From an uncultured Gammaproteobacteria bacterium (GTDB lineage Bacteria > Patescibacteriota > Microgenomatia > UBA8517): 64,000 nt of DNA. Shown here in pieces: positions 1,842-28,560 of the stretch (its first letter is position 1; the number at the start of each line of letters is the position of its first letter). The notes beneath the pieces are model-generated. The model saw only the letters and a list, made by a program, of their open reading frames with translations, searched no databases and was not told where the DNA came from. The position numbers were made by a program, and so were the translations under genes. The stretch covers positions 45,055-109,054 of the forward strand of contig CAZOVJ010000002.1 of the NCBI GenBank assembly GCA_964583685.1. The letters are read 5' to 3'.

Positions 1842-2228
1842 ATGAGTAAAAAGTACAACCTTGGCAACAGTTTCAAATTTGCCTTCTCGGGCATTAAAGA
1901 AGCCTTAATCAAGGAGCCAAATTTTAGAATTCATATTGTGTTGGCTTTATCAATTATGATTTTGGCAATAATATTAGGCTTGTCAACAATAGAGTGGCTC
2001 ATTCTCTTATTTACCATCAGCTTTGTCCTCATTCTGGAACTAATCAACACTGGGCTTGAGGCCCTTGTTGACCTGGTCAGCCCGGAGATATCTGAAAAGG
2101 CCAGAATAGCCAAAAATGTTTCAGCCGCAGCCGTTCTTTTGGCAGCCATTCTTTCAATTATAGTAGGGGTTATTCTTTTTTTACCGAAGATAATCAATAG
2201 CAAAATCTTTCCAATTAGCTTTATTTAA
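1842..2228 (+). CDS. dgkA: Diacylglycerol/undecaprenol kinase family membrane protein
   Basis: DgkA-like 3-TM protein with the ELINTGLEALVD motif. Confidence 0.7.
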   Translation: MSKKYNLGNSFKFAFSGIKEALIKEPNFRIHIVLALSIMILAIILGLSTIEWLILLFTISFVLILELINTGLEALVDLVSPEISEKARIAKNVSAAAVLLAAILSIIVGVILFLPKIINSKIFPISFI

Positions 2229-2861
2229 AACATCAAGCTTAACCGCCTTGGTCAGCCAATATCCATCAATTTTGGTTCTTCTCAGCTCTTTTAAATATGC
2301 ACCGCATCCTATTTTTCTACCAATATCTCGGGCTAGAGCTCGGATATAGGTCCCACTGGAAACCCAACACTCAATAGCCAAAATCGGATAGTTATAGTCA
2401 AGCACTTTAATTGAATGAATCGTTATTTTCCTGGATGGCAAATGAACCTCTTTTCCCTTCCGAGCCAGTTGATAAGCCTTTTTGCCTTTTAATTTTATGG
2501 CTGAAAAAGCGGGCGGAATCTGCCTGATCTCGCCCCTAAAAGAATCTACAATTTTCTTTATTTCTTTTTCAGCCGGAACTAGAAATCCCCTAACCCTTGA
2601 GGTAACCTTTCCCTCGCTATCATCAGTTTCTCGCTCTTCACCCAAGAAAATCTCTGCTCTATATGTTTTCCGACCTTTCCTGGTAATTTTTCCCAGTTGC
2701 TTTGTTGAATCCCGACCAATACCCAGAATGAGTAAACCTGTTGCATTGGGGTCAAGGGTGCCAGCATGACCAACACGTCGCTCACCAGTAATCCCCCGCA
2801 CCCTATCCACTACATCATGCGAAGTCATTCCCTTGGGTTTATCTATCAGAAGAAACATCAC
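2181..2861 (-). CDS. truB: tRNA pseudouridine(55) synthase TruB
   Basis: Conserved [19 protein letters not shown] catalytic region. Confidence 0.9.
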
Positions 2862-3274
2862 TCTCCAATAACCTTGACCAGAACCCGCTTTTGTCTTTGA
2901 CCGTCAAATTCTCCATAAAAAATCTGTTCCCAAGGGCCAAAATCTAGCTTTCCGTTTGTAACCGCGACCACAACTTCTCTTCCCATAATTTGCCTTTTAA
3001 TATGAGCATGAGCATTATCCTCACCAGTTAAGTTGTGTTTATAGCCTTTTGGATCATAAGGGATGTACTTTCCTAACCACTCTTTAAAATCTTCTTTGAG
3101 TCCACTCTCTTCATCATTAATAAAAACGCTTGCCGTAATATGCATTGCATTCACAAGACAAAGGCCTTCTTTTATTCCAGATTCTGCCACGACACGTTCA
3201 ACCTCACTGGTAATATTGACAAACTCAATTTTATCTTTTGTATTAAAGGTCAGATATTCAGTTTTCGATTTCAT
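2858..3274 (-). CDS. YjbQ/UPF0047 family protein (secondary thiamine-phosphate synthase enzyme)
   Basis: Family motifs HITASV...HAHIKR. Confidence 0.75.
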
Positions 3275-3372
3275 AAACTATTTTAAAACCATAGGTGCAG
3301 TATTTCAATTTAGCCTGAAAAATGGTAAAATTCAAGCGCTATTGCGGGGCGGTGTAATGGTAGCACACTGCT
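3273..3372 (+). repeat. Partial duplicate of the tRNA-Gln promoter region and tRNA 5' half (tRNA positions 1-30); direct repeat of 6751-6850
   Basis: About 90 % identity to 6751-6850, including ttcaatttagcctgaaaaatggtaaaat and attgcggggYggtgtaatggtagcacactgct. Identity is lost exactly after the 5' anticodon-stem strand. Confidence 0.8.
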
Positions 3373-3479
3373 TAACCCGCCTCCGTTTCTGCCAGTTATC
3401 TAGTGACGGATCAAGATCTCCCTGGAACCTTCAACAAAAGTAACAATAACTACTAACTGGGGGCTTTATCTTTAGGACG

Positions 3480-4310
3480 TCATGTCAATTTTAATTTTAT
3501 GGCTGAAGCAAATCTCCCTTCAAGCTTTTGGTGCTCGCTCCCTTTTGCACCCGCTCCATAATGGGAAAAGAAATGGCTACCATCACGTATGGTACATAGG
3601 CCAGAAGTCTCAATATTTTCCGGAGCTACTCCAGCCCCAATCAAATCCATCTTAATACAAAGAGGTAAGTCGAAAAAAAGTTTACTCCCTTGTTTATTAA
3701 ATAAAGATTCCGGCAAGAATTTTCTCGCATCAAACTTAACCAACACATTATTCCACATATTAGATCTGGTTATATCAAAACTCTGTTTGCCTATGCAAGG
3801 ACCTATGGTTACCCTTACATTAGCACTGTTTACACCAAAGACTCGTTGCATTACTTCAACAGTATGCCTAGCGACTCCGGCAACTGCTCCCAAAAGACCT
3901 GCATGGACTATCGCAATAACTTTTTGAACTGAATCATAAAATAATACCGGCGCACAATCTGCCACACATAAAAATAAAGTAACATTTTTGTTATCGGTGA
4001 TAATGCCATCGTAACCTTTTCCTATAATTTCCAGCGGAAACTTCGAGTGTGAATCAGTATGTCTCTTCTTAGTATTATCATCCATTAAAGTTAGTAAGTT
4101 GGTTCCTTGGGTAATCTCCGGTTCTAAAAGAATTGAACTTACATCAAGATTAATCTTTTCCATAAAATTATTTCGATTATTCAGAGAAACTTGCCTGCTG
4201 CCTCTACTCAATGCCATGTTCCCTAGAGATTTATCTGAAAACCCATGTATTATACCCAATTCTTGAGACATTAAAGGTGAATACCAAACTTTACTTCGAA
4301 ACTCGTACAT
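3480..4310 (-). CDS. pgeF: Peptidoglycan editing factor PgeF / YfiH (DUF152 laccase-domain) family
   Basis: Motifs VADCAPVLFYD...HAGLLG. Confidence 0.7.
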   Translation of the reverse strand: MYEFRSKVWYSPLMSQELGIIHGFSDKSLGNMALSRGSRQVSLNNRNNFMEKINLDVSSILLEPEITQGTNLLTLMDDNTKKRHTDSHSKFPLEIIGKGYDGIITDNKNVTLFLCVADCAPVLFYDSVQKVIAIVHAGLLGAVAGVARHTVEVMQRVFGVNSANVRVTIGPCIGKQSFDITRSNMWNNVLVKFDARKFLPESLFNKQGSKLFFDLPLCIKMDLIGAGVAPENIETSGLCTIRDGSHFFSHYGAGAKGSEHQKLEGRFASAIKLKLT

Positions 4311-4370
4311 ATGATTTTTTAACTTTATTAAACCCGTCGGTTAGATCAAGACCTCCTTCTGAATACGCTT

Positions 4371-4928
4371 TTATTTTCTGCTCTTAAGCTTTTTTTCAAG
4401 ATCAAATTCTCGGATAACATTGGCTGCGGCCTTTGGTACAAGATGATCCCATTTTTGGCCACAGGCAATGAGATTTCTTATTTTGTCACCAATGGTAAAT
4501 CGATCCGACATATCTTTCTCCCACAAAATTTCGACTTTTAAGCCAAGCGATTTTAAAATTTCCACTTTTACTCGATTCCATCTTTCATAAATGGTAGTAA
4601 AAAAAATTGCGTCTGAGGGCACGTAATTAAGGATCAGTTGTGGGAAATTTATAGGAAAGGAAACGATATCAAAATCTTCCCTGCGAACACCCGCCTCTAA
4701 TAAAGCACCTTTTATCATTAAAAATCTCTCGTAATAAGTAAATGGGTTAGATTTAGTAGAAGAGCGTGCTAAATTACTCTGATGGTCCGCTGTAAGCGTC
4801 GGATCTGGGTTTGTAATGCCGACTATTAGATAGTCACAACGAGCTTTAGCGGCTAAAATATATTCCATATGCCCCAAGTGAATCGGCTGGAAACGACCAT
4901 GAACTACGCCAACTTTTTTTGTTTTCAT
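4371..4928 (-). CDS. Nicotinamide-nucleotide adenylyltransferase-like cytidylyltransferase (NadM-type)
   Basis: GRFQPIHLGHMEY contains the (H/T)xGH nucleotidyltransferase motif. Confidence 0.65.
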   Translation of the reverse strand: MKTKKVGVVHGRFQPIHLGHMEYILAAKARCDYLIVGITNPDPTLTADHQSNLARSSTKSNPFTYYERFLMIKGALLEAGVRREDFDIVSFPINFPQLILNYVPSDAIFFTTIYERWNRVKVEILKSLGLKVEILWEKDMSDRFTIGDKIRNLIACGQKWDHLVPKAAANVIREFDLEKKLKSRK

Positions 4929-4951
4929 TATAAATTTTATTGAGAAATAAA

Positions 4952-6199
4952 TTATTGATGCGCAATAAGGACAGAAGGAATGTTTCTGCCATTAATCCCA
5001 TTCCACTTAGGCTTAGCACCTGTGAAGTCAATATAGTGTAAATTGCCAAAAACACTGAAACCATTATTTTTATCTTTAACACAAAGTTTGCTGCTTTGCC
5101 CTGCATCACAAACCGCAGCCTGAACAAAATCAAATTTTTGAGTAAGTAGGTCATGAAGCTCATAGATGTTTAAACCTGATTGGTTTTCAATAAAAGGAAA
5201 AGAATCTGCCAGGAAAAAGATAACCTTACTTTTCGTGAAAAATATAATACTCCACGCTTTAAAAAAACCTTTCTCTAGAGGCTTGATCTTGCCGTCATAA
5301 CTAGGAATAACTTCTCTAGTTATTATCTTTCTAAGGGATTTAGCTTTTTTAGGCAAAGTAAAGCTTAATGTAACAGCATTATCGTGTCTTCTTACTGTGT
5401 AATTATCAATTACCACCTTATGGATCAAATCTCCAACCGTTATATCATTTTGCAATCTTTTATCTGTTTCGATTACATAGAGATAGTCAAATAAGCTCAA
5501 AGGCTTGGTGCTTTTCTTCGCAACAGAAACTTGTCCTTTTTTATTAAGATCAACACCTAAGAGTATTCTATCCTTAAAGCAATTCAACATCGTTGTCTTT
5601 CTAATCGCAATTCTTGCCTTGCGAATACTATTTTCGTATTTAAATCGAATATCCGAAACCCCATAAATAATGGCATCACAACCATTGTTTGGCCCTAAAT
5701 TCTTATAATTTTTGGCGCCAATCCATTTCAGTTCTATATTCCCTATAGCCATTTCGCCTTCTGCTTTCAAAAACCTAATTGAAAGTTTGCCCTGGCGTTC
5801 AATTAAACTAACTCTGCTATTGCTGGGGAACTGCAACACTTTTCCTTGGCTAACATACAAGTTAAGGGCTTGAACTTTTGGAACCCTACCCTTATCCGTC
5901 AGATATAAATTACAGGTATTTATACTGCCTAATAAATTGGGAGAAATCTCCTTATAAAATTTTTCAGTGAATTTCAATAATGAATTTGGCATAAAATCAT
6001 TTATAAGAGAAAATTTATATGTACTTTTTGGTATTTCGAGCCAATATAAATTAACAAATCTGTCACTAGTGGGCCAGTAAGTCTCCTGATTTAAAAAAGC
6101 ACATTTACCCATCCTTGTTCTTTTTCTATTAATTGGGCTAATTCCTTTTTGTTCGAGTAGTTTGTCTTCGTTATTAGCAAGCATCGGTTGTACATTCAA
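4952..6199 (-). CDS. Hypothetical protein (415 aa)
   Basis: Long ORF with no recognisable motif. Confidence 0.45.
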   Translation of the reverse strand: MNVQPMLANNEDKLLEQKGISPINRKRTRMGKCAFLNQETYWPTSDRFVNLYWLEIPKSTYKFSLINDFMPNSLLKFTEKFYKEISPNLLGSINTCNLYLTDKGRVPKVQALNLYVSQGKVLQFPSNSRVSLIERQGKLSIRFLKAEGEMAIGNIELKWIGAKNYKNLGPNNGCDAIIYGVSDIRFKYENSIRKARIAIRKTTMLNCFKDRILLGVDLNKKGQVSVAKKSTKPLSLFDYLYVIETDKRLQNDITVGDLIHKVVIDNYTVRRHDNAVTLSFTLPKKAKSLRKIITREVIPSYDGKIKPLEKGFFKAWSIIFFTKSKVIFFLADSFPFIENQSGLNIYELHDLLTQKFDFVQAAVCDAGQSSKLCVKDKNNGFSVFGNLHYIDFTGAKPKWNGINGRNIPSVLIAHQ

Positions 6200-6257
6200 A
6201 AATGAATTAATAAAGACTCTACCAACGCGGTCGTATACACCAAAATCCGTAATAGTT

Positions 6258-6581
6258 TTATTTTAACATATTACCTTTTCTGATAATTACATGCTTGAAC
6301 CATTTTTCTTGAAATCTGGTTTGTTTTTCAATTTCTTCATCTGATAATTTGATTCCTTTTGAAACAACAATTAGTTTGTCGCTATTGTCATTGATTCTGT
6401 GAATCACAGCAATACAAATCCCTTTGGCTTTTTTAAGAGGTTTACCGACTCCCAAATAATAAGCATCTAATTCTTCGCCATCTGGAGAATATGTATTGGG
6501 AATAAGCCCATAATTTGCTTCATAGAGAAAACAATGTTTGGGATGTTTACTCCCCAAAGGTCGGTCAATAATAACCTCCAA
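6258..6581 (-). CDS. Short inorganic-pyrophosphatase-like protein (possibly truncated)
   Basis: IPNTYSPDGEELDAYYLG resembles the family I PPase DGDPLDVLV region, but the protein is only 107 aa. Confidence 0.4.
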   Translation of the reverse strand: MEVIIDRPLGSKHPKHCFLYEANYGLIPNTYSPDGEELDAYYLGVGKPLKKAKGICIAVIHRINDNSDKLIVVSKGIKLSDEEIEKQTRFQEKWFKHVIIRKGNMLK

Positions 6582-6586
6582 AAATA

Positions 6587-6778
6587 TTACTCTGGTCGTA
6601 TGTTGTTGGTTGACCTATCCAGCTCGTTATCTGGAATTTCCAAATTTGATATAAGTTTTCTTGCTTCTTTGCGAGTTTTGTAAGACCCACCCAGATTCCT
6701 CCTTGTTTTCTCACTTAAAACATAATAACCATTTTTTCTTTTAATTATCATTAAAAAACCATAGATACAGTATTTCAA
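6587..6778 (-). CDS. Small hypothetical protein (63 aa)
   Basis: ORF only. Confidence 0.25.
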   Translation of the reverse strand: MKYCIYGFLMIIKRKNGYYVLSEKTRRNLGGSYKTRKEARKLISNLEIPDNELDRSTNNIRPE

Positions 6779-6812
6779 TTTAGCCTGAAAAATGGTAAAA
6801 TTTAAGTGTTAT

Positions 6813-6883
6813 TGCGGGGTGGTGTAATGGTAGCACACTGCTCTCTGGAAGCAGGAATCGGGGTTCGAATCCCTGCCCCGCAG
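6813..6883 (+). tRNA. tRNA-Gln (anticodon CUG); CCA not encoded
   Basis: Hand-folded cloverleaf: acceptor TGCGGGG/CCCCGCA with a U1-A72 pair, U8, D-stem GTGT/GCAC, anticodon stem CTGCT/AGCAG around loop CTCTGGA, T-loop TTCGAAT. A promoter-like TGGTAAAAT element lies upstream. Confidence 0.8.
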
Positions 6884-6989
6884 CACAGATTCAAGCGGCA
6901 CTATGTGGTCTCAAAAAAAGTCCTTATTTTTATTCTTGAAAAAAATTGATAATAAGCTATAATTCCAGGAAACGAATCAAAAGGCAGAA

Positions 6990-7466: not shown

Positions 7467-7512
7467 AATCAGGAAACAACTTCTCTAGCTTGAGATAAAA
7501 CATTAGTCATAA

Positions 7513-7650
7513 GGTTATGGGTTCGGAAGGTTCTAGCCCGGTATGCTCAGCCGAATTGGATACCTTTTTCATACTGTCTCACTTGTACTTTTATGGTAAA
7601 TTAGGAGTTATGGAGTTGTAAGGATAAAACAGGTCTAGGCCAGCTTACTC
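7513..7650 (+). repeat. Island repeat family, first copy: R-module (7513-7552), L-module (7565-7590), degenerate R-module (7626-7650)
   Basis: ggttatgggttcggaaggttctagcccggtatgctcagcc, then tttttcatactgtctcacttg, then caggtctaggccagcttactc. Confidence 0.7.
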
Positions 7651-7881: not shown

Positions 7882-9864
7882 CTACTGTTTCTCTTCAACA
7901 ACCTTACCGTCCTTTATTACAATCACCCTGTTAGCCATCTTTGCAAACTGCTCGTCGTGAGTGATAACCACCAAGGCTTTACCTTGCTGTCTGAGATCTT
8001 GAATCAACTTAGCCACCTTCAACATAGCAGCTGAGTCAAGACCAATTGTGGGTTCATCCAACACCAAAGTTGTAACAGCTGTGTTGCAGGACGCTATGGC
8101 CAACATTCTTACATCTGAAGGGTGCAGGTCCAGCGGACAAGTCAAAGGATTCAAACCTGTCCATTCAAGACCCCCCCTAACAAAGGCATCTGTATCCGAT
8201 TCAGACCACCCCAAGATCTTTGGACCAAAGCTAAGTTCTTCTTCAACAATCATGGCAGTTATCTGCAAAGCCGCATGTTGGAAAACGTAGCCCACCTGAC
8301 CCACCGTTTCTACCGTACCTTTAGCTGGTTTTATGGCACCAGCCAGGGTAAGCATGGCAGTTGTTTTGCCTGAGCCGTTGGGTCCCATAATGGCAACAAC
8401 CTCTCCCTCTTTCAAGGTAAGATCAATGCCTTTAAGGATTTCGTTTCCCTCGAGGGCTACATATACACCGTTCATTCGGGCAACAACATCGCCCAAGTCA
8501 CTTTTGGGATACTTCTCCGGCTGGTCTACAAGGTTGCAACGAGATAGCCACTCGTCGCTATTGAAGAAATTGTTTGGACTAAGGTCTGCCGTAAGTTTCC
8601 CCTCCTCTAGAACATAGACTCTATCAGTAAATCTAGCCAACTCTTGCCAAAATGGGTCGGCTATCACTACAGTGCAAGCTTGTTTGGACCGCAAGATACT
8701 GAGCGCTTCCATAAAGTCAACTCTACCCTGAGGATCAAGCTCCTGCATGGGCGAGTCCAGTAAAAGTGTCTTTGCCCCAGAGACCAAAGCTCCAGCCAAC
8801 ACCAGTCGTACTTGTTCACCGCCGGATAGCTTCGTTGTCTCACGATCCCACAACTCACCAATCCCCATAGTATCTAGAGCTTCTTTGGCTTCTTTCTCAT
8901 CTTTAGCTAAAAAAGAAATCTCTTGTCCCACTGTAAGACCGTATATTGAAGCAAAAGGATCTGGTGCAACATAGCGGGCAAAGCTGCATAAGGCAGACAA
9001 CGGTATCTCGTGGGCAAGCTTACCCGAAACCAATACCCCGCCTTTAAGCCCTCCCATAATCCAGGGAACGACCCCACCCATCACTCTTAAAAGAGTCGTC
9101 TTTCCCGCCGCATTCTTACCAGCGAGATAGACAAATTCGCCTGACCTAATGGTTAGACTTATGTCTTCAAGAACATCCGGAAGTCCAGGAGAATAACGAG
9201 CAAAGACATTCTTAAGTTTAATGTCTCCTTCCATCTGGCTTTCTTCTGTGTGGTGAGATTGAAAAGCAAGTGTTGCTTGCTGGGAATTTACTATAATCCG
9301 AGGGATGATGGCTACTGCCAAGGGCACAAGATTTTTAATATTGGCCCTAATTGAATCCCATCGTAAACCTCGGATAATTAGTGATTGAGTAAGGGCAACA
9401 AATTCCCGTCTGAGTATTTGTATGCCCCGCAAAATCCCTAAAGCCCATGTTCTTATGGGTTTAATCCAAGCAATCCCCCGATACATCTCTGGCGCCGGTG
9501 TTGAAAACAACCAGGCGAACGAGATCAACATCACCCCAGCAAGTCTTGAGCCGGTAACCAAACCGCGTTCTATTCCCACTGAATTGATTGTAAAGACAAA
9601 CCAGTGAATCCCACCGTACTCAGGGGGTGAAAGTATGGCGTTGTAAAGAAACACCATCCCGCCTGAGACTGGCGCAGCCAGAGCCAATTTCCAGTTCCTG
9701 TTGCTATTAGCAAGAAACAAAAGCAACCCTACTACTAGAAGGGAAATGGCTCCTGTTACGTTATTTATAAAGATAAACAACAGGCTCACTGTGAACACTA
9801 TGGCGAATCTCAATTCTGGTGGGAGAACACCTAAACCGAAACCTCTCTTTCTATTTGAGAACAT
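7882..9864 (-). CDS. ECF transporter, fused T component (EcfT/CbiQ-like) plus duplicated ATPase domains (EcfA-EcfA')
   Basis: N-terminal multi-TM region followed by two Walker A motifs (GKNAAGKTT and GPNGSGKTT) with LSGG signatures. GC is about 50 % or higher. Confidence 0.75.
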   Translation of the reverse strand: MFSNRKRGFGLGVLPPELRFAIVFTVSLLFIFINNVTGAISLLVVGLLLFLANSNRNWKLALAAPVSGGMVFLYNAILSPPEYGGIHWFVFTINSVGIERGLVTGSRLAGVMLISFAWLFSTPAPEMYRGIAWIKPIRTWALGILRGIQILRREFVALTQSLIIRGLRWDSIRANIKNLVPLAVAIIPRIIVNSQQATLAFQSHHTEESQMEGDIKLKNVFARYSPGLPDVLEDISLTIRSGEFVYLAGKNAAGKTTLLRVMGGVVPWIMGGLKGGVLVSGKLAHEIPLSALCSFARYVAPDPFASIYGLTVGQEISFLAKDEKEAKEALDTMGIGELWDRETTKLSGGEQVRLVLAGALVSGAKTLLLDSPMQELDPQGRVDFMEALSILRSKQACTVVIADPFWQELARFTDRVYVLEEGKLTADLSPNNFFNSDEWLSRCNLVDQPEKYPKSDLGDVVARMNGVYVALEGNEILKGIDLTLKEGEVVAIMGPNGSGKTTAMLTLAGAIKPAKGTVETVGQVGYVFQHAALQITAMIVEEELSFGPKILGWSESDTDAFVRGGLEWTGLNPLTCPLDLHPSDVRMLAIASCNTAVTTLVLDEPTIGLDSAAMLKVAKLIQDLRQQGKALVVITHDEQFAKMANRVIVIKDGKVVEEKQ

Positions 9865-9936
9865 TTTCCTCTCCCTTCCCTAAGGGAAATAGAGGAGACG
9901 GGTAGTGGTACTATCCGTCTCCCAGATCCGCATATC

Positions 9937-10698
9937 TCACTTGGCTATTCCGGCATCTCGTAATCGTTGGGTGTACATTGGTAGTAGGAATAGACCCAAG
10001 ATGGCAGAGACACTGTCTCCCATAAACCACCCTATTCCTGGATCAACCAGTGCCGCTGCAAACGGTTTCCCACCAACGGTTGCACCGATCGCGCCAATCA
10101 ATGCGCTTACCAGGCATATCAAGACGACGATAAGCAGAGCAGGTAGGAAATGTCGCGGGTTAAGCTCTAACCCCCCAAGCAGCAAACGTGCCCCAACTAC
10201 AAGCACTGCCAAGGGAATTAGAAATCCCCAGGGCATTACTAAGTTGAGGGATATGTTCAACAAACCTGCTGCTAAAACCAGGAGGGTCAAAATCATGACC
10301 CGAACGGCTCCGGTCAACACGTCAGATGGTTTCTTTGCCCCCAAAGTTGGATCGATTTTGAAGGCGGTGAACAGGAGAGCGGGCAACGCTGCGTTTGCGA
10401 GGCCGCCGGCAATTGGGTTCATGATAATATCCACGATACCCCAACCGCCGTACGCCAAAATTCCTGCCGCATAGGCTCCCAACCCCGCGGCTAGACAACC
10501 ATACCAAGGCCCCAGCCAGATGCCGGCAACAAGCTGCAAGGCCGCCGGAAGCCAGATAAAACTGGCTCCTTTGACAGTTGGCGATGATCCTACTGTCATC
10601 ATCACCCAGCCGATGGCGGCAATAGCCACGGCCATGCCGATAGTAAACATAAGTCGCAGTGCCGGGTCGCGCCTAACGACATATTCCGAAGTAGTCAT
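9937..10698 (-). CDS. ECF transporter substrate-specific (S) component, Gly/Ala-rich 6-TM protein (substrate unknown; folate-family is a guess from context)
   Basis: Hydrophobic small-residue-rich integral membrane protein directly upstream of the EcfT/A/A' gene; high GC. Confidence 0.5.
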   Translation of the reverse strand: MTTSEYVVRRDPALRLMFTIGMAVAIAAIGWVMMTVGSSPTVKGASFIWLPAALQLVAGIWLGPWYGCLAAGLGAYAAGILAYGGWGIVDIIMNPIAGGLANAALPALLFTAFKIDPTLGAKKPSDVLTGAVRVMILTLLVLAAGLLNISLNLVMPWGFLIPLAVLVVGARLLLGGLELNPRHFLPALLIVVLICLVSALIGAIGATVGGKPFAAALVDPGIGWFMGDSVSAILGLFLLPMYTQRLRDAGIAK

Positions 10699-12559: not shown

Positions 12560-13036
12560 ATGAGAAGAACAGGAGTCAGAGCAGTAGCGGTATTAACAAA
12601 AGGTGACAGAATACTTTTAATTCATAGAACTCGAGATAGTAAGGAATTTTGGGTTTTGCCAGGAGGCGGAGTAGAAAAGGATGAGAAAATTGAAGAAGCA
12701 GTTAGCCGTGAAGTTGAAGAAGAGACAAGCATCAAGTGTAAAATTGTTAAATTGCTTTATACACACGTTTATTCTGACCTTGGTCACAAACAATATTATT
12801 ACCTGTGTAAATACGTTTCAGGAACCCCCAACCTGGGGAAATTCAATGAATTCTATACAATGAAGGAAGAAAATCAGACTTACGCACCAGTTTGGGTAAA
12901 CATTGGAAACTTGCCAAAAATATTACTTTATCCTCTGGAAATTCGGGACTGGATTATTCAAGATTACAGAACAAACTTCGAGCACCCGCCTAAATCCGCG
13001 ACGTTAAAATCCACAAATCTCCGTCAAGAAACATGA
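12560..13036 (+). CDS. NUDIX hydrolase (paralog A)
   Basis: Nudix box GGGVEKDEKIEEAVSREVEEETSI; about 70 % identical to the 26461-26937 product. Confidence 0.8.
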   Translation: MRRTGVRAVAVLTKGDRILLIHRTRDSKEFWVLPGGGVEKDEKIEEAVSREVEEETSIKCKIVKLLYTHVYSDLGHKQYYYLCKYVSGTPNLGKFNEFYTMKEENQTYAPVWVNIGNLPKILLYPLEIRDWIIQDYRTNFEHPPKSATLKSTNLRQET

Positions 13037-13040
13037 GGCC

Positions 13041-13303
13041 TTTTTTTTATACTGTCTCATTCGTCTCACTTCAACTTTGCTAAGTGTTATAACATTCAGC
13101 CTCGAGCGTGACTTGGGAGTAAAGAAAAAATGGCTAGAGAAAGCAATTATTTTTAGAAGGTATGTAGATGATAAAAATGCAATCCCAAAAAACTTAAACT
13201 GGGGAAAGTGTGAAAAAGGTACAAAAATAGGAAGTATTGTGTAATTAGTACAATATGCCGTTAGTTATAATGATAGAAAGGTTCTAGACCGACCTGCTCA
13301 GCC
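13041..13303 (+). repeat. Island repeat: L-module (13041-13124) and R-module (13264-13303) separated by a 140-bp AT-rich insert
   Basis: ttttttttatactgtctcattcgtctcac...agcctcgagcgtga...ggagtaa // gttataatgatagaaaggttctagaccgacctgctcagcc. Confidence 0.75.
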
Positions 13304-13472
13304 AAATTGAGCACCCATATGTAGCCCATGTCTCTAGAAAATCCCATGTTTTCTATCAAAACGGCTATTTTTCTTTCAAACATTCGTACCACACGCTCAA
13401 TGTCCGTATAAATCCCCTAGTATTGACTGAGATAACCTTGAATGTTATATTGACGCACTGCCAATAACAAAC

Positions 13473-16672: not shown

Positions 16673-16860
16673 AGAGTGTTACACTTGGAGTAATCGATTA
16701 TAGGCTCAAAAGGTTCTAGACCGGCCTGCTCAATTATCTGGGATTAAGAACCTCAGGCACGACGTCCAGTTATGAGGACAAGTTGGGTCTAGACCGACCT
16801 GCTTCAATTATTTCGGAATCAGAACCCTAAGCACAGTGTCCAATTATCAGGATTAGAAAA
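16673..16860 (+). repeat. Island repeat: truncated L-module plus two tandem R subunits (about 60-70 bp each)
   Basis: gtgttacacttggagtaatcgattataggctcaaaaggttctagaccggcctgctcaattatctgggattaagaacc...gggtctagaccgacctgcttcaattatttcggaatcagaaccc... Confidence 0.75.
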
Positions 16861-20010: not shown

Positions 20011-20125
20011 TTTGTTTCATTTGTCTCACTTCGCTTTGCTCAGTGTTATAACATTCAGCCTCGAACGTGATACAATCGGAGTAATCGGTTATGGGCTCGA
20101 AAGGTTCTAGACCGACCTGCTCAGC
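20011..20125 (+). repeat. Island repeat: compact L+R element
   Basis: tttgtttcatttgtctcacttcgctttgctcagtgttataacattcagcctcgaacgtgatacaatcggagtaatcggttatgggctcgaaaggttctagaccgacctgctcagc. Confidence 0.8.
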
Positions 20126-20155
20126 AATATAATCTTTTTGTTATAATACAAATAT

Positions 20156-21055: not shown

Positions 21056-21976
21056 ATGGTTGAAAGAAAGCGTTTCGGTACGATAGAATCTTCCCCAAAA
21101 AGCAGAGGTTCAATCGATCTCGAACTTGGTGAAAGAATTAAGATCCCGTTTACTGGGGCAGAAATCATTTATGCAACTACTATCTCCGGAGATAAGGTGG
21201 TAGTTAAAAAACCACTAAACAACGATCGGGCTAGACATGAATGGGAAGGTCTTAATACAGTAGAATCGACAGGTATTTCTATCCCAAAACCTGTTGCGCT
21301 AATAAGCTATTCAGAGGACCAACTGGCTATTGTATCTAGTTATGTTGAAGGCGATAAATTGTATGATAAACCAAACCCTGATGTAAAAGCAGAAGTTGGA
21401 AGGCAAATTAAAAAAATGCACCAAAGTGCACAGATTGTCGGTGAAGATTGGCTATCTAGTGGTCGAAGCTCATTTCTTTACTATGATAGATATATTTATA
21501 GGTGGTCTAGGGGAAATATCGAAGAGCTGAAAGCAGACGGTAGGACTGCTTCAATATTAGGAGAACTTACCGATGCTGCGGATCAATTCTGTACGCACTC
21601 AGAACCAACATTCAACCACAACGATTTACATGATGGGCAAGTTATCGTAGATGGAAAAGGAAAACCAACAATCATAGATTTTGGAAATTGGACAGAAGAA
21701 ACTTGGATGAACGATATCGGTTATCACTTGTTTCACCTTGTCAGAACTGACAGAGTAGGTGCTGATGACTTTACAAACTTTTTAAACGGATACATGGAAG
21801 GCAAAAAAATGACTGATAAAGAAAAATCAAATTTGGCTTTTTACTTGCTTTTTATATCATCAAGAGCACTAAATTATTTTTACAGAAGACATAGCTCATA
21901 CTTGCCTGTTGCACAAGAGACTCACGAAAAAGTGTTGGCTCATCTTGAAAATGAATCAATCTGGAAAGATTATTAG
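21056..21976 (+). CDS. APH/ChoK-family small-molecule kinase (aminoglycoside-phosphotransferase-like)
   Basis: Catalytic loop HNDLHDGQVIVD and IDFGNW, the Brenner and DFG-like motifs of the APH family. Confidence 0.65.
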   Translation: MVERKRFGTIESSPKSRGSIDLELGERIKIPFTGAEIIYATTISGDKVVVKKPLNNDRARHEWEGLNTVESTGISIPKPVALISYSEDQLAIVSSYVEGDKLYDKPNPDVKAEVGRQIKKMHQSAQIVGEDWLSSGRSSFLYYDRYIYRWSRGNIEELKADGRTASILGELTDAADQFCTHSEPTFNHNDLHDGQVIVDGKGKPTIIDFGNWTEETWMNDIGYHLFHLVRTDRVGADDFTNFLNGYMEGKKMTDKEKSNLAFYLLFISSRALNYFYRRHSSYLPVAQETHEKVLAHLENESIWKDY

Positions 21977-22620
21977 CCCTTTTTTTCTAGAAGCTTAAAA
22001 TGAGAGTAATCGTTGATGTAATTTACTTTCCAGGATTTCCTTTGACTGCTGTAAATCAGGAGAGAGATACCTGTGTAGTTTATTGTTAGTGTTCTAATAA
22101 CTCTTGCCATCATCTCATCCGAATAATTATTCCCTAATATAACCATACTTATAAAACATCTGATAAACACGTCATGCGATACGACCAAAATTCGTTTTCC
22201 TTTATATTTTTTCCTTAAGAAACTTGAGAGTTTATCCGCTCTGCCTAGGACTTCTCTCACTGATTCCTCCTTATTTTTAAACTTCCAATCAAGATTTCTG
22301 TAGTTTGCGTAATATTCTTTAACATATTCTCTTGAAATCTTACTGTTTCTATCTGCTCCATACATTTGAGGTAATTGCATTCTTTCGTGTATGTAATCTA
22401 GAGTCTCTGTTTTAATTTTCAGATTACCAGAGAGAATTTCTGTAGTTTTTCTTGACCTTTCCCATTTACTTGAAAAGATTTTGTCTAATCGGGAGAATCT
22501 GGATCTTTGACTTAAAACCTCTGCTTGTTTTTCACCAAACTTGCCCAGTTTGGAGTCAGGAGTCTGCCACTGGTTTCTGGGGGTTTCGCTACTTGCGTGT
22601 CTAACTAAGAACAATAACAT
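21973..22620 (-). CDS. Histidine phosphatase superfamily protein (PGAM-like), last gene of the RiPP operon
   Basis: LFLVRHASSE (RHG-type) and ILVVSHDVFIR (SHG-type) motifs. Confidence 0.55.
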   Translation of the reverse strand: MLLFLVRHASSETPRNQWQTPDSKLGKFGEKQAEVLSQRSRFSRLDKIFSSKWERSRKTTEILSGNLKIKTETLDYIHERMQLPQMYGADRNSKISREYVKEYYANYRNLDWKFKNKEESVREVLGRADKLSSFLRKKYKGKRILVVSHDVFIRCFISMVILGNNYSDEMMARVIRTLTINYTGISLLIYSSQRKSWKVNYINDYSHFKLLEKKG

Positions 22621-22627
22621 CTTATCC

Positions 22628-23398
22628 TTATTGTACTGTTCCTAGTGCTATAACTCCAATGACGCTTTCATCAATCTTGTCAAAATCGAGAAGTCTGTTT
22701 AAGCCATCGTCAATAAAACCACCTATTGAACAAGCGCCCAACCCCAGCTCGGCAGCTAGTAAGCTAACATTTTGTGCATAGTGACCGTACTCTGTATAAA
22801 TATGCCTCAAACCTCTATCACCATACTTCTCCTCAGTTCTGTCAAATATCGACGATATTACTAGTAAAACAGAAGATTTTCGAATCCAAGGTTGGTTAAA
22901 CTGTTTCATTGTTTCTTTGAAAAAGGGTTTATCATATATCTTTTCCAAAGAATGGCTTTTAACATGATAGTGGTATATTGCTGGCAGCAAATCCTCAACT
23001 TTGAATACAAAAGGATAAATTTCTAATGGGTATCTTGCTCCAGCAGAAGGGTAAAATCGTTTGTCTTTTGTCTTTTTAAACGATAACCTCTTTAACCCGC
23101 ATGAGTAAAACATTAGATTGGAAAAAACAGCGGATTTAATGTTCTTTTTTGTAAATTCTCTTATTGACTCTCTTTTTGTTAATGCATTACTCAAGCTCCA
23201 TTTCGGTTTGGTGGGTGTAGGTAGTAAAACCTGCTCCATCCTGGGATAAGCTTTATAATAAACTTTCTTCCAATGCTCCGGCCAAGTGGAATAAGGTGTT
23301 GTCTTGTATTTACTGAAATCGTCAATCTTTATATTATTATTGAACTCCCTTGATTTAGAGATTTTCAGCGTTTTAATTATTTTTCCTAACTTGTTCAT
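22628..23398 (-). CDS. SagB-type FMN-dependent dehydrogenase (azoline oxidase; nitroreductase fold)
   Basis: RESIREF and PSAGARYPLEIY match the SagB-type dehydrogenase signature. Confidence 0.8.
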   Translation of the reverse strand: MNKLGKIIKTLKISKSREFNNNIKIDDFSKYKTTPYSTWPEHWKKVYYKAYPRMEQVLLPTPTKPKWSLSNALTKRESIREFTKKNIKSAVFSNLMFYSCGLKRLSFKKTKDKRFYPSAGARYPLEIYPFVFKVEDLLPAIYHYHVKSHSLEKIYDKPFFKETMKQFNQPWIRKSSVLLVISSIFDRTEEKYGDRGLRHIYTEYGHYAQNVSLLAAELGLGACSIGGFIDDGLNRLLDFDKIDESVIGVIALGTVQ

Positions 23399-23399
23399 G

Positions 23400-24710
23400 T
23401 TATAAAAATGGGTGAGGATAAGTGTTTAATTTTCCGGTATTTTTGTAGCCCAAACTACTCGGAACGTTGTGTAAACGCTCACCTCCCCGTAGTGGGTATT
23501 TTTCATTAAGATACACAGGTTGCATTCTCGGTATCACAACCTTCACTACTTTAAAAGGAATATCCATAAAGTATTTTGAGGTAATATCTTTGTAATATAT
23601 TTTATAACCCCTATCTTCTAGAGATTTTCTTAATATACGCAGCTGGTTTCGTGCAGAAAGATCCTTGTTTGCGGACTCTATTTTTACAAGATCTAAGTTG
23701 TTAATAAAAAAGTCTAACTTTGAGATCGATTTAGATGGGTACCAAAAAAGCCCTCGATTTTTAATTGTAGAATTTTTAATCAACTCTGTTTTTGAAATAT
23801 CTGATGGATTTTGTATATATGATTCGCGTATCCATGTTCTTGTATGAAATGCTTCATTGATCGAACCGATAATTGCACTTTCTATATCTAAGTGAGATTT
23901 TAAACCTACAGAAACAGCTTTACTAAATCCGGTTTCATCGACCACCACAGATGCAACAGCTGGAATGGGCAAATCTGTTCTTATATCTAAAGAAAATATT
24001 TTCAATCTATATCTCTGAGATATTTCTAATAGTTTCTTAACTTTTTCATTATTAGAAGACAAAAGATCATATCTTTTTGGTTTTAGTTTATTCAGATAAT
24101 AAATCATGAATGCATCTCTCTCAATAACTTCATAAATTCCACCCAATATTGCAGAATCTAGTTTAAAATGACCGGCAGCCCCAGTACTAATTGATGGATA
24201 GATGGCTGGCTCTTTTTTGACGGGACGGTAGGATAGGTAAATTACCTGGCAAGGGACGAGACAGCTCTCGTTAGTGTTCAAAGATTTCATTTCTGTCCAC
24301 CTAAACAATGAATTGTCGTCAATTCGAAAATTCTTATATTCATTTTGATGAAGTTGTTTGTCTGAAAAAAATATGAACTTCTCTGGATTAATGGCATTTT
24401 TATTGATTTTCGAATAGCTACCTACATAACTAACCTCTTTATTAAAAAAGGCGAAATTATCATATCTCTCTATCGCTTCAGCTAAAGCTTTTAGTACTGC
24501 CTCATATTGGGAGAAAAATGACACTCCTGAAGCCTTTGAGTGAAAGTGTGCTCCATCTTGCTTTAAATGTTTATCATTGATTGACGCTGAATAATACCAG
24601 AACTTAGGCTCATCATAATGTTGTCGAACTCTTTCAAAAGATTCGACTAATTTAATTTCTTGCAAGATGGGGCTGAGGTTTTTGATCAAACTGATAAAAT
24701 CTTCATTCAT
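23400..24710 (-). CDS. YcaO-domain cyclodehydratase
   Basis: GVSFFSQYEAVLKALAEAIERY fits the canonical YcaO ATP-binding motif. Confidence 0.85.
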   Translation of the reverse strand: MNEDFISLIKNLSPILQEIKLVESFERVRQHYDEPKFWYYSASINDKHLKQDGAHFHSKASGVSFFSQYEAVLKALAEAIERYDNFAFFNKEVSYVGSYSKINKNAINPEKFIFFSDKQLHQNEYKNFRIDDNSLFRWTEMKSLNTNESCLVPCQVIYLSYRPVKKEPAIYPSISTGAAGHFKLDSAILGGIYEVIERDAFMIYYLNKLKPKRYDLLSSNNEKVKKLLEISQRYRLKIFSLDIRTDLPIPAVASVVVDETGFSKAVSVGLKSHLDIESAIIGSINEAFHTRTWIRESYIQNPSDISKTELIKNSTIKNRGLFWYPSKSISKLDFFINNLDLVKIESANKDLSARNQLRILRKSLEDRGYKIYYKDITSKYFMDIPFKVVKVVIPRMQPVYLNEKYPLRGGERLHNVPSSLGYKNTGKLNTYPHPFL

Positions 24711-24772
24711 AAAAAATACACCTAACCATAGCAGGTTTTGTTAGTCAAGACTATTAATAAATAACTGATTAG

Positions 24773-25009
24773 TTATTTACCTAGTCTATTTTCGGCACAA
24801 TCACAGCCACAGCTCGCACAGCTTGAACAGCTGCCACAACTACCACCACCACAAGCACAGCTTGAACAGTCTCCGCAACTCTGATCACAATCAGAGGCAC
24901 GTACTACACCTTTGGTAGCTTCTGCTTTAATATTTGTGTCGTTTTGCTGGGGCATGGCATCAGCTAAATCTCTCGTTTCTCTTATAACTTCACTCGTCAT
25001 TTTTCTCAC
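24773..25009 (-). CDS. TOMM/LAP-type RiPP precursor peptide (78 aa) with a Cys/Ser/Gly-rich core
   Basis: Core SCGDCSSCACGGGSCGSCSSCASCGCDCAENRLGK; a strong RBS GGAGGGGGTGAG lies 7 nt upstream; it sits immediately upstream of YcaO. Confidence 0.7.
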   Translation of the reverse strand: MRKMTSEVIRETRDLADAMPQQNDTNIKAEATKGVVRASDCDQSCGDCSSCACGGGSCGSCSSCASCGCDCAENRLGK

Positions 25010-25122
25010 CCCCTCCCATAGTTTGATGCGATATTATAACAGCAGTCAAAATATGTCAATTATACTTGAATGTAATATATTCAGCTCACCCATGACTTTT
25101 AAAGACGTTTTTTGAGTACTGT

Positions 25123-25905
25123 TCATTTTTTTACAGTTATCATAAATCTTTTAGAATTAGTTTTTATTCCCTTTCTGGTTTTGTTTTTTTCGATAAATCG
25201 TTCTAGAATCCCAAAATCTTTCTTGCTTTTTCCAAAACCTGGGATTATTGGAGTGTGTTTAAGCAGAAAAATTAAATCTTCTGAAGTTTTGTAATAGACA
25301 GTCGAATTGTATTCTTTCGCTTTGATATTTTTGAACCCAGCTTTTTTCAGACCTTTTATATATTTATTCTTAAGTGTTCCGTCTTTTAATCCATACGCCT
25401 GACCTCTTTTAAAAGCCCGCTTAATGTTAATTTTGTCACCTTCGCTAACTTGTTGTGTGAAAAAGTGACCACCTTTCACTAAGACTCGATAAACCTCTAG
25501 TGGATAAAAGTCACAATGTCTGCTGGTTACAATATCAAAGGAGTTATCAGGGAATTTAAGCTTTACTGAACTCATTCGAAGAAAGCGTACATTTTTATAC
25601 CCTGCTTTGTTAAGGTTTCTTTTTGCAGTGTTAACCATACTGACTGAATGATCTATGCCAGTTATAAACTTCACTTTTTCAGCTAACCTAAGAATTTGTT
25701 CTCCTCCTCCAGTTCCTATATCTAAAAGTTTGTCTGTTGGTTTTGCGATTTTCGCTACTTCCTCAATAAAATTCCATTTTTTACCTTCCTCGATCTTTTT
25801 CAATCGACTGAAGTCCCAACCAATTCGTTTACCAACTCTATTGTAAAATTTCTTGTAATTAACCTGACTCATGTTTTGATTATATCGCAAAGTGGTATCA
25901 TACAT
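25123..25905 (-). CDS. Class I SAM-dependent methyltransferase, first gene of the RiPP operon; the start may be the Met at 25872
   Basis: SAM motif LLDIGTGGGEQ. Confidence 0.75.
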   Translation of the reverse strand: MYDTTLRYNQNMSQVNYKKFYNRVGKRIGWDFSRLKKIEEGKKWNFIEEVAKIAKPTDKLLDIGTGGGEQILRLAEKVKFITGIDHSVSMVNTAKRNLNKAGYKNVRFLRMSSVKLKFPDNSFDIVTSRHCDFYPLEVYRVLVKGGHFFTQQVSEGDKINIKRAFKRGQAYGLKDGTLKNKYIKGLKKAGFKNIKAKEYNSTVYYKTSEDLIFLLKHTPIIPGFGKSKKDFGILERFIEKNKTRKGIKTNSKRFMITVKK

Positions 25906-25907
25906 TT

Positions 25908-26459
25908 ATGAAAGTCTATCTAATCAGGCATGCTATGAGTGTGGATGCAAAAAGAGGAATATCACAAAGAGATAACTCGCCATTGGCTAAAGATGCAATT
26001 AAAGATAAATCTATTAGTTATTATAAAGAATTAGAATTTGATAAAGTATTATGTTCTCCACTGCTTCGAGCGACACAAACAGCAGAAAAACTTTTTGGGA
26101 ATTTTGAAATTGTAGATTACATATATGAATATAAAAGACCTACAGAACTTGATGGAGTTCCAAGAAAAGAAGCTAGAAAATTCTGGGAAAAACATTGGCC
26201 GAAATCGAGTACGGATCCCAACTGGAGCCATGACGGCAGCGAAAGCTTCAATACAATGGTCACAAGGGCTGATAAGTTTTATAAGTTCTTAAAGGGCTTG
26301 AAGTACAAAAGAGTTGCCGTAGTTGGCCATTCTATATTTTTTAGACATTTATTGTCTATACATGCACTTGGTAAGAAAAATTACACAATTGACAAGTATT
26401 ACAAACTTTCCATGTTTATTAAACCCTATCCTCTGCACTACTTAAAGATGGAGCTATAA
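25908..26459 (+). CDS. Histidine phosphatase superfamily protein (PGAM-like), divergent from the RiPP operon
   Basis: YLIRHAMS, SPLLRATQTA and VAVVGHS motifs. Confidence 0.7.
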   Translation: MKVYLIRHAMSVDAKRGISQRDNSPLAKDAIKDKSISYYKELEFDKVLCSPLLRATQTAEKLFGNFEIVDYIYEYKRPTELDGVPRKEARKFWEKHWPKSSTDPNWSHDGSESFNTMVTRADKFYKFLKGLKYKRVAVVGHSIFFRHLLSIHALGKKNYTIDKYYKLSMFIKPYPLHYLKMEL

Positions 26460-26460
26460 G

Positions 26461-26937
26461 ATGACAAGAGTAGCAATAAGAGCTGTCGCAGTTTTAGTAA
26501 AAGACGATAAAGTATTGCTTGTACACAGAACTCGTAATGGAAAAGAATTTTGGGTTTTTCCGGGTGGAGGAGTTGAGGAAGGCGAAAATGTAGAAGAAGC
26601 GGTCGTCCGTGAAGTGGAAGAAGAGGCAAGTACTAAATGTAAAATAGTTAAACTTCTTTATACCCATATCTACTCGAATTTAGGACATAAACAATTCTAT
26701 TACCTATGCGATTACATATCAGGAAACCCAAAATTAGGTGATTTTAATGAATTAGAGACAATGAAAAATGAAGATCAAACTTATGAACCGGGTTGGATAA
26801 AAATTGAAAGTCTATCCAAGAAATTAGTCTATCCTTTGGAAATTCGAGACTGGCTGATTGAAGATTATAGGACGGATTTCAAAAACACACCGAGAGCTGC
26901 AACCTTAAAATCCACCGAGCTTCGTCAAGAGTTATAA
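26461..26937 (+). CDS. NUDIX hydrolase (paralog B of 12560-13036)
   Basis: Nudix box GGGVEEGENVEEAVVREVEEEAST; 158 aa, the same length as paralog A. Confidence 0.8.
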   Translation: MTRVAIRAVAVLVKDDKVLLVHRTRNGKEFWVFPGGGVEEGENVEEAVVREVEEEASTKCKIVKLLYTHIYSNLGHKQFYYLCDYISGNPKLGDFNELETMKNEDQTYEPGWIKIESLSKKLVYPLEIRDWLIEDYRTDFKNTPRAATLKSTELRQEL

Positions 26938-26942
26938 ATTCC

Positions 26943-27229
26943 TTTTTTATACTGTCTCATTTGTCTCATTTAGCCTCAAGTGTGATACACTTTTGACAAG
27001 CGGTTACGGGTCGGGAAGGTTCGAAACCCACCTGCTCAATTATCCCAGAATAGTACGGTAAGTATGGGATCAAGTGGGTCCAGACCCGCATGCTCAATTC
27101 GCTGGGAATAGTACCGTAAGTATGGGATCAAGTGGTGGCAGACCGACCTGCTCAATTAGCTCGGATTAGGAACCCCAGGTTCGATGTCCAGATATGGGAC
27201 TGGAAGGGCCCAGACCGACCTGCTCAGCC
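26943..27229 (+). repeat. Island repeat: L-module followed by four tandem R subunits (59, 59, 71 and 22 bp)
   Basis: ttttttatactgtctcatttgtctcat...ggttcgaaacccacctgctcaatt.../ggtccagacccgcatgctcaatt.../ggcagaccgacctgctcaattagctcggattaggaaccccaggttcgatgtccagatatgggactggaag/ggcccagaccgacctgctcagcc. Confidence 0.85.
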
Positions 27230-27252
27230 AAGACGGGCAGGTGTGTGACCAC

Positions 27253-28074: not shown

Positions 28075-28089
28075 TAAAATATATCAGTT

Positions 28090-28560
28090 ATGAGATTGCA
28101 AATATTAGATAAATTAACAGTTGAGTTGAAAAAAGAAATTAAAAGTGAAATTCAAGTTGTTTTTATCTTGTCGAAAATTAGAAAATTATTGGAGTGGGAG
28201 AATGCAAAGGGCAGATATAAGATCCTAAACTTTTATTGCAATTGGGTACTTCACAATAAAATCGACAGGACAGAGCCAGTTGGAAAAATCTTAAGAGATT
28301 TTATTGTTAATAAAGCAGATCGGTATAAACTAGTTTTTCATGAAGAATTTAAAAAAGAATTTAGAAGATTTCTGAAAGATTACAATCTTCCCGTTTTGAG
28401 CCCGATTTCGATGGAAAAATTTAAAAACGAACTAAATAAGGCACTATCAGAGACTCCAGTCGAAATAGTTATAGGAACTCGTTACAGAATCAAACTTGGC
28501 GACCCTGAAGCTGCGAATTTGAATTATGTAATTGTTCCATTGAAGGAACCCAAGACCTAA
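28090..28560 (+). CDS. Hypothetical protein; distant paralog of the 16094-16657 product
   Basis: See the paralog blocks listed for 16094-16657. Confidence 0.5.
   Translation: MRLQILDKLTVELKKEIKSEIQVVFILSKIRKLLEWENAKGRYKILNFYCNWVLHNKIDRTEPVGKILRDFIVNKADRYKLVFHEEFKKEFRRFLKDYNLPVLSPISMEKFKNELNKALSETPVEIVIGTRYRIKLGDPEAANLNYVIVPLKEPKT

Follow-up and report, generated by a model that had tools for sequence, protein, structure and literature searches.

The 64-kb stretch of DNA analysed here (the window) comes from a Microgenomates-group bacterium of the candidate phyla radiation (CPR). This report concerns its tRNA-Gln(CUG) gene, which is accompanied by a displaced upstream copy of its own promoter region and 5' part. 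The two copies, in direct orientation, enclose about 3.4 kb with five minus-strand genes. The duplicate is real and cleanly bounded and lies in a region of gene turnover; the locus is otherwise fairly ordinary, with no sign of an active element and nothing mechanistically unprecedented. The arrangement may be the old, now immobile footprint of one single-crossover insertion, an explanation that we favour tentatively and rate as somewhat short of probable.

The direct repeat at the tRNA-Gln gene

ARAGORN found one tRNA gene in the window, tRNA-Gln(CTG) at 6813-6884. A search for direct repeats paired 3280-3372 with 6750-6842 (93 nt, offset 3470, 85/93 identical or 91%). The core recovered by BLAST, 3285-3372 against 6755-6842, was identical at 82 of 88 positions (93.2%, E 4e-32), a similarity far above chance expectation for 64 kb, and BLAST found no third copy in the window. 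A preliminary description of this DNA had reported a tRNA-Gln(CUG) gene with an upstream duplicate of its promoter and 5' half, and ARAGORN, the repeat search and BLAST agree on it. The identity of about 90% given there also stands, but the second copy occupies 6750-6842 rather than 6751-6850, and the left one starts at about 3280-3285, not at 3273. The elements of the repeat are as follows.

3280-3372, plus strand: displaced copy, the same promoter region with a 30-nt tRNA 5' stump carrying U8->C; not a tRNA
3373-3479, no strand: unique spacer between the tRNA stump and the stop codon of the pgeF-like gene, with a novel junction between 3372 and 3373
6750-6842, plus strand: tRNA-proximal copy, the 63-nt intergenic region of the putative bidirectional promoter with tRNA nt 1-30 (repeat search, BLAST, mismatch list)
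6813-6884, plus strand: intact tRNA-Gln(CUG) (ARAGORN; Rfam RF00005, 62.9 bits; orthologue in the relative L183)

The repeat consists of the 63 nt located 5' of the tRNA, which is the entire intergenic promoter region, and tRNA nt 1-30. The copies differ at eight positions (fragment/tRNA copy: 3283 T/A, 3284 T/A, 3295 G/A, 3297 G/A, 3333 C/T, 3337 C/T, 3339 C/T and 3350 C/T) and share an exact 35-nt core at 3298-3332. On the right, identity extended through CTGCT to the end of the anticodon stem's 5' strand, and thus to the stem/loop junction, as had been described before; of the 7 nt that follow (fragment TAACCCG, tRNA CTCTGGA) none matched, and the first 12 columns past this edge had nothing in common. 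On the left, the edges lay within 6-14 nt of minus-strand start codons (yjbQ ATG at 3274, ORF54 ATG at 6751), so that the repeated unit is a complete divergent intergenic region plus a tRNA stump. The flanks past both ends were no more similar to each other than shuffled sequence, which ruled out a decayed full tRNA copy beyond them.

The stump itself, 3343-3372, is on the same strand as tRNA-Gln, 3.47 kb upstream of it, and ends at tRNA nt 30 (canonical position 31). With U8 changed to C and the 3' half missing, it is dead as a tRNA; the displaced copy was not detected as a tRNA by ARAGORN and had no Rfam match even at E<=1. The spacer 3373-3479 resembled neither the tRNA 3' half nor the sequence downstream of the tRNA, and it was unrelated to the dispersed repeat family of the window. 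A copy of that family in the spacer was separately considered and rejected, as nhmmer gave none to the left of position 7500.

Promoters within the repeat

The repeat appears to be a compact bidirectional promoter, to judge from consensus matches on both strands.

6793-6801, plus strand: putative tRNA-Gln promoter, extended -10 element TGgTAAAAT, 11 nt before +1 of the tRNA (read from the sequence)
3280-3308, minus strand: predicted sigma-70 promoter TTGAAA-17-TAAAAT toward yjbQ-truB (consensus scan, 10/12 matches)

The same TGgTAAAAT is found in the fragment at 3323-3331. A weak plus-strand -35 element, TTTCAA, at 6773-6778 and 3303-3308, reads on the opposite strand as TTGAAA, the minus-strand -35, and the plus-strand extended -10 and -35 are unchanged between the copies. 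In the minus direction, the -10 of the predicted yjbQ promoter ends 5 nt ahead of the yjbQ ATG, and the yjbQ-truB mRNA is therefore predicted to be leaderless or nearly so. The equivalent minus-strand -10 in the tRNA-proximal copy is TTTAAT, and the scan reported no promoter there. Whether it arose by insertion or by local duplication, the displaced copy plausibly serves yjbQ-truB now, a predicted role that would explain its retention in a small, streamlined genome. The mismatches might cluster away from the promoter hexamers or within the discriminator, a possibility only, since by a rough estimate eight are too few to show it.

Genes in and beside the enclosed block

The gene calls and Pfam matches agree with the five genes that had been described between the copies. 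These and the adjacent leftward genes are listed below.

2181-3274, minus strand: yjbQ (2858-3274) and truB (2181-2858), overlapping by 1 nt (Pfam UPF0047 and TruB_N; gene calls)
3480-4310, minus strand: divergent PgeF/YfiH-like protein of the Cu-oxidase_4 fold family (Pfam PF02578, E 7e-44)
4371-4928, minus strand: archaeal-type (NadM-like) nicotinamide-nucleotide adenylyltransferase-like protein (NMNAT-like; Pfam CTP_transf_like)
4952-6184, minus strand: 410-aa protein of no known family (a 415-aa open reading frame (ORF) if the start is TTG 6199)
6258-6581, minus strand: short inorganic-pyrophosphatase-like protein, 107 aa (Pfam PF00719, E 4e-7, profile positions 32-112 of 153)
6587-6751, minus strand: ORF54 (63 aa from TTG 6778), of doubtful coding status; called in the JGI contigs, with its ATG on the left edge of the repeat

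All five block products were searched against Pfam, PHROGs and NCBIfam. The rest of the window was compared with Pfam using ORFs of at least 150 aa from 13.5 kb onward plus a CbiQ-ABC transporter and the membrane protein next to it; for 9.9-13.0 kb, pre-computed annotations were relied on to screen for mobility genes. The PgeF-like protein scored 116 bits with TIGR00726, under the 141-bit cut-off, and its best non-self relative among 1.84 billion representatives was 43% identical, with 8 matches at E<=1e-30. The NMNAT-like protein reached 74-77 bits with PRK01153/TIGR01527 of NCBIfam, again under cut-off, and its best relatives, 47-51% identical, were on two short metagenome contigs only, without synteny. 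For the 410-aa protein there were no Pfam, PHROG or NCBIfam matches, a PDB profile search gave nothing meaningful, and the AlphaFold model, mostly beta, had a mean confidence (pLDDT) of 51, too poor for a fold search. Its five homologues (30-50% identity) all occur in unrelated contexts, next to FGE-sulfatase/LpxC-like or rRNA-methylase genes, with neither a tRNA nearby nor a shared block. ORF54 had no family match in Pfam, PHROGs or NCBIfam. By comparison, the flanking truB has thousands of relatives with up to 68% identity, and ykuD relatives with up to 72%. The five block genes are sparsely distributed accessory genes.

Searches for a source of the block or the tRNA 5' half among viruses, phages and plasmids found nothing: the block had no relatives on viral contigs, in phage records or on plasmids, and PHROGs gave generic enzyme matches only. 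The 30-nt 5' half of the tRNA had no match among metagenome contigs, in a collection without this lineage.

YjbQ belongs to a family too conserved to trace the locus: its top matches, in Omnitrophota, Planctomycetota and Nitrososphaeria, reached 68-76% identity without shared synteny, and yjbQ was not adjacent to truB in any Microgenomates relative examined. The gene may itself have been acquired and then translationally coupled to truB via the 1-nt overlap.

The same neighbourhood in relatives

Two family-level relatives, L094 and L183, were available for comparison. The order truB-(bacA)-dagK-ykuD-pap2-lon is kept in both. In L183 (TruB 65% identical), a tRNA-Gln(CTG) gene at 1019-1090 is head-to-head with truB, 5.9 kb away as against 3.95 kb in the window; its 5' half is identical to that of the window through the D-arm, and its promoter is recognisably orthologous, with TGaTAAAAT conserved and TGTCAA upstream (TGTCAA...TGATAAAAT). 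Eight genes, none related to those of the window, lie between tRNA and truB in L183, which has no tRNA fragments; other genes again are found upstream of truB in L094; and none of the six genes that the window has in this interval occurs there in either relative. A conserved tRNA-Gln and truB with differing contents indicate that the neighbourhood is old and its filling turns over.

At two pairs of the anticodon stem, 27:43 and 28:42, the L183 and window tRNAs differ by compensatory changes on both sides (C-G to U-A and U-A to C-G). Because the stem in the fragment is of the window type, the duplication is younger than the split between these lineages. Two of the differences between the copies, at 3333 and at tRNA position 8 (U8), could be polarised with confidence using L183, and both are derived in the fragment.

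The preliminary description had also proposed that the tRNA-Gln locus is a recurrent insertion hot spot. The variable filling in L183 and L094 agrees with this, as does a compositional outlier downstream at 7.9-10.7 kb, but a 3' tRNA-Gln fragment was found nowhere in the window and none bounds the downstream accessory region.

Population contigs and the assembly

Eight contigs from six independent samples (JGI 3300008517, JGI 3300028837, ERZ25073496, SRR26215678, SRR3095933 and SRR3095939) were 100% identical to the window here and had the same arrangement throughout, which is thus fixed across samples. Excision would have left recognisable products. An empty site would show the fragment-type bases C3333/C3337/C3339/C3350 followed by ...CACACTGCT joined to CTCTGGAAGCAG, and a circle would show the tRNA-type bases T/T/T/T followed by ...CACACTGCT joined to TAACCCGCCTCC; put differently, fragment-type bases would run into the anticodon loop, CTCTGGAAG, or tRNA-type bases into TAACCCGCC. 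Neither junction occurred in the eight contigs.

A chimeric or collapsed repeat would also give two partial copies, and several short contigs do terminate at the edges of the exact 35-nt core (3298, 3303, 6768, 6773, 6797). Such ends are, however, the expected effect of a repeat on de Bruijn assemblies, the eight mismatches make the copies distinguishable, and the junctions are covered, at 100% identity, by contigs L001, L002 and L180, which come from separate samples and different assemblers. With the identity across six samples, these contigs rule out an assembly artefact for practical purposes.

The sole structural variant among the six samples is in contig L002 (JGI 3300028837), in which 309 nt (1407-1715) are missing in frame within the gene for the YkuD L,D-transpeptidase; it is otherwise 99.98-100% identical.

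Origin of the arrangement

In the explanation that we favour, tRNA-Gln(CUG) would originally have been head-to-head with yjbQ-truB, the two sharing a compact bidirectional promoter. A block of about 3.4 kb with the five accessory genes and its own copy of the promoter and tRNA nt 1-30 would then have arrived, and a Campbell-type single crossover between a circle of this block and the chromosomal locus, within the shared 93 bp, would have joined them. The enzyme might have been an integrase since lost or encoded elsewhere, or host homologous recombination may have sufficed. An intact tRNA-Gln would have been rebuilt beside the incoming block, and the resident promoter with its 30-nt stump would have stayed attached to yjbQ, where its predicted minus-strand promoter, TTGAAA-17-TAAAAT, may still drive yjbQ-truB. 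In a Campbell-type single crossover, circular DNA integrates through a short homologous segment by general recombination. The product is the same, a homologous segment duplicated directly on both sides of the insert; the difference is that the donor circle is hypothetical here and 93 bp is short for RecA-dependent recombination. A single crossover accounts for the direct orientation, the intact tRNA, the 5' fragment upstream of it and the promoter kept by both leftward operons. Insertion is also supported by a repeat that spans the whole intergenic region exactly and ends on the right at the stem/loop junction, by an orthologous tRNA-truB neighbourhood with a different filling, by the sparse distribution of the block genes and by their low G+C content at third codon positions (GC3; 0.25-0.33, the low end of the window range, as against 0.32-0.43 in core genes; yjbQ, 0.31). 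That there was an insertion rather than local copying of the promoter, that the crossover was single, which enzyme acted, and that both promoters are active, are inferences.

Several findings weigh against this explanation. The composition of the block, 3373-6749, was ordinary in tetranucleotide distance (rank 71 of 122 windows), and its GC content, 0.356 compared with 0.388 for the whole 64 kb, is not that of a horizontally acquired island by the compositional definition. No recombinase, transposase, phage or conjugation gene was found among the five block products with Pfam, PHROGs and NCBIfam, and no integrase or transposase among the ORFs screened in the window outside the block, including the 9.9-13.0 kb annotations. 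A non-coding promoter with 91% identity demands a very close donor in which the block was already beside tRNA-Gln, and hence an earlier rearrangement. A diverged donor explains the derived bases in the fragment no better, and perhaps less well, than two copies that started out identical. Finally, the nearest other lineage has a TruB that is just 68% identical and the databases hold no genus-level relative, so there was no empty site to examine.

Some of these findings would be expected if the 93 bp had been duplicated locally, without gene transfer. The five genes would then be native to a long leftward operon extending from the tRNA gene to yjbQ, and the promoter with tRNA nt 1-30 would have been copied ahead of yjbQ, either by tandem duplication of 3373-6842 and deletion of the redundant copy or by template switching during replication, giving yjbQ-truB a promoter of its own. 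The ordinary composition, the absence of a recombinase from the proteins screened, the arrangement fixed in six samples and the need of an insertion for a very close donor all favour this, as does the better minus-strand promoter being in the upstream copy. Both polarisable differences are derived in the fragment, as if the copies had begun identical and the fragment alone had been free to drift. The 3372/3373 junction is compatible with a segmental duplication, as are these 2/2 differences, but both are also compatible with insertion. Local duplication would take two steps, or else a single step of an unusual sort, and the endpoints would have to coincide by chance with a gene start and the anticodon stem/loop junction; the microhomology at the junctions is 2 nt at most, and neither L183 nor L094 supports a native long operon. 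It is the main rival, though we consider it rather unlikely. A true integrase-type island of the rare 5'-restoring kind, integrated site-specifically at the anticodon stem/loop of tRNA-Gln and either degenerate or mobilised in trans, is a doubtful proposition. The fragment and the tRNA gene have the correct configuration and orientation (PMC4383910), the edge is exactly at the border of the anticodon loop, the position of top-strand cleavage expected for a tyrosine recombinase, the arg2A-VII elements of Klebsiella are a precedent for integration upstream of a tRNA, and 93 bp is inside the reported range of 15-221 bp for such repeats (bioRxiv 10.1101/2020.11.02.365908 for both). However, neither the 3.4-kb segment nor the proteins screened across the 64-kb window yielded an integrase, and the loop, which should form the 7-nt overlap, is missing from the fragment. 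The cargo comprises five genes of metabolic or unknown function, for which no relatives turned up in viruses, phages or plasmids, neither a strain without the block nor an alternative junction was seen, and a compositional signal is absent.

Two further proposals are less probable still. CPR bacteria could have an insertion system, promoter-carrying and 5'-restoring, that uses the tRNA-Gln gene for acquisition. A recombinase encoded elsewhere would act on one phosphodiester where anticodon stem and loop meet, with a lone strand exchange that replication resolves, as for integrons, and the repeat-punctuated array downstream at 7.5-38 kb would belong to the same gene-capture region; this we regard as improbable speculation. 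The upstream copy might instead be a functional RNA gene, its tRNA promoter driving a tRNA-half-like or antisense RNA that would act as a regulator of tRNA-Gln or of the pgeF operon. In its favour, the two copies do not differ in the plus-strand extended -10 and -35, and no terminator was predicted in the spacer 3373-3479 before pgeF, so that a transcript would run antisense into pgeF. In opposition to this, Rfam gave no match at E<=1, L183 has no counterpart, and U8->C together with three clustered T->C changes between the -10 and +1 resembles decay or silencing. The fold of stump and spacer was no better than that of shuffled sequence (z = -1.7; 12/200 shuffles equally good), and with this value and no terminator call the pair was rejected both as a terminator and as a structured RNA. 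A functional RNA is thus very improbable.

Comparison with known tRNA-associated elements

The class I anticodon-loop attachment (att) sites described by Williams in 2002 are said to share an identity block that includes the 7-nt loop, as the crossover segment, flanked by the stem arms. At the present locus identity ends before the loop, and none of the 7 loop bases matches. The preliminary description took the repeat for the classic scar of integration or excision at such a site, which did not hold up: the 5' part and not the 3' part is duplicated, the loop is absent from the fragment, no integrase was found, the composition is ordinary, and neither an empty nor a circular junction was present in the eight contigs. 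Prophages and integrative conjugative or mobilisable elements (ICE/IME) did not apply, as there were no phage structural, conjugation or relaxase genes and no viral or plasmid relatives. A split or permuted tRNA gene would have no intact gene, a 5' half ending after position 37 and a separate 3' half with a complementary leader; it was rejected because an intact gene exists here, the fragment stops at nt 30, and the window has no 3' fragment.

Classic islands in tRNA genes (tDNA) duplicate the 3' part of the tRNA, downstream of the gene (PMC4383910; bioRxiv 10.1101/2020.11.02.365908). The configuration filter of Islander accepts a 5' fragment upstream or a 3' fragment downstream of an intact tRNA gene, and the program requires a tyrosine integrase gene within the island (Hudson, Lau and Williams 2015, PMC4383910). 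As in Islander tDNA islands, an intact tRNA and a fragment in the same orientation here bracket accessory genes, in a configuration that the filter accepts. The differences are that there is no integrase, the segment is just 3.4 kb, the anticodon-loop crossover segment is not duplicated, and variable presence was not seen: 8/8 contigs from the six samples have the same arrangement, and the nearest other lineage is at 68% TruB identity.

The Klebsiella arg2A-VII and other clade I.d integrases use the D-loop sublocation and integrate upstream of the tRNA gene (bioRxiv 10.1101/2020.11.02.365908). The arg2A-VII islands resemble the present case in that insertion is on the 5' side of the tRNA, so the 5' part needs restoring. 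They encode an integrase, however, and recombine in the D-loop, whereas the edge here is the anticodon stem/loop junction, the 63-nt promoter is also duplicated and there is no integrase. In Thermococcales, integrated elements leave partial tRNA genes, for example PYG1 at tRNA-Gln with 44-bp repeats (PMC9897764). There too a partial and a complete tRNA copy are at opposite ends, and the fragments last as non-functional relics, but the elements are viral or plasmid, 9-23 kb long and equipped with recombinases, whereas the present segment carries five genes of metabolic or unknown function and lacks mobility genes, and its repeat contains a promoter.

The wider accessory region

The 40 kb from about 3 to 43 kb, between the truB core and the gltX core, are full of accessory genes. 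A dispersed repeat of about 55 nt, with the core ...TATGGGCTCGAAAGGTTCTAGACCGACCTGCTCAGC..., occurs there in 21 copies by nhmmer (7500-37863), all on the plus strand. Most copies begin 3-50 nt past the stop codons of plus-strand genes, and some are arranged in tandem, two to four at a time. The repeat had no Rfam match, RNAalifold found no conserved structure, it was absent from the relatives examined, and the region yielded no integrase. It may be a site for recombination or protein binding, or a miniature element that has decayed.

A gene for a fused CbiQ-ABC-ABC transporter and the adjacent one for a 253-aa membrane protein, at 7882-10698, are a strong compositional outlier (GC 0.47-0.54, GC3 0.45-0.54, tetranucleotide distance 0.27-0.32 as against a window mean of 0.18, sd 0.03) and look recently transferred, lying about 1 kb past the tRNA.

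7500-7556, 13260-13308, 16682-16738, 20074-20130, 26988-27231, 29758-29875, 33357-33473 and 37809-37863, plus strand: examples of dispersed repeat copies
12560-13036, 26461-26937 and 33495-33932: three NUDIX hydrolase genes
21056-21976: APH-family phosphotransferase
22628-23398: nitroreductase-family dehydrogenase
23400-24710: YcaO cyclodehydratase
28670-29239: CPT-like P-loop kinase
29885-30616: AadA_C nucleotidyltransferase
30679-32333: ABC-2 exporter pair
58190-58573, minus strand: bacterial RNase P RNA class A (Rfam, 113.9 bits)

The first two NUDIX genes are 71% identical over 300 nt, which makes them paralogues within the accessory region. At 21056-31428 there is a run of resistance- or detoxification-like accessory genes, consisting of the APH-family phosphotransferase, the CPT-like kinase, the AadA_C nucleotidyltransferase and the ABC-2 exporter pair, an unusual cargo for a CPR genome. 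The YcaO cyclodehydratase adjoins the nitroreductase-family dehydrogenase, the enzyme pair of clusters for azole-forming peptides (ribosomally synthesised and post-translationally modified peptides, RiPPs). On the right, the accessory region is bounded by a housekeeping block (gltX, an asnS/aspS-type synthetase, relA/spoT, recJ, the CCA-adding enzyme and miaA) in which the RNase P RNA is located.

Implications

For programs that search for islands the locus counsels caution: a tRNA-fragment signature without an integrase, strain variation or a compositional signal is not a proven mobile element. For the organism, the duplication of a putative bidirectional promoter would let an insertion separate an essential operon (truB) from its promoter with neither neighbour silenced. 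If the favoured explanation is right, the locus would record a precisely bounded and dated-looking gene gain beside a tRNA gene in a streamlined CPR genome, where the arrival of accessory genes is little understood.

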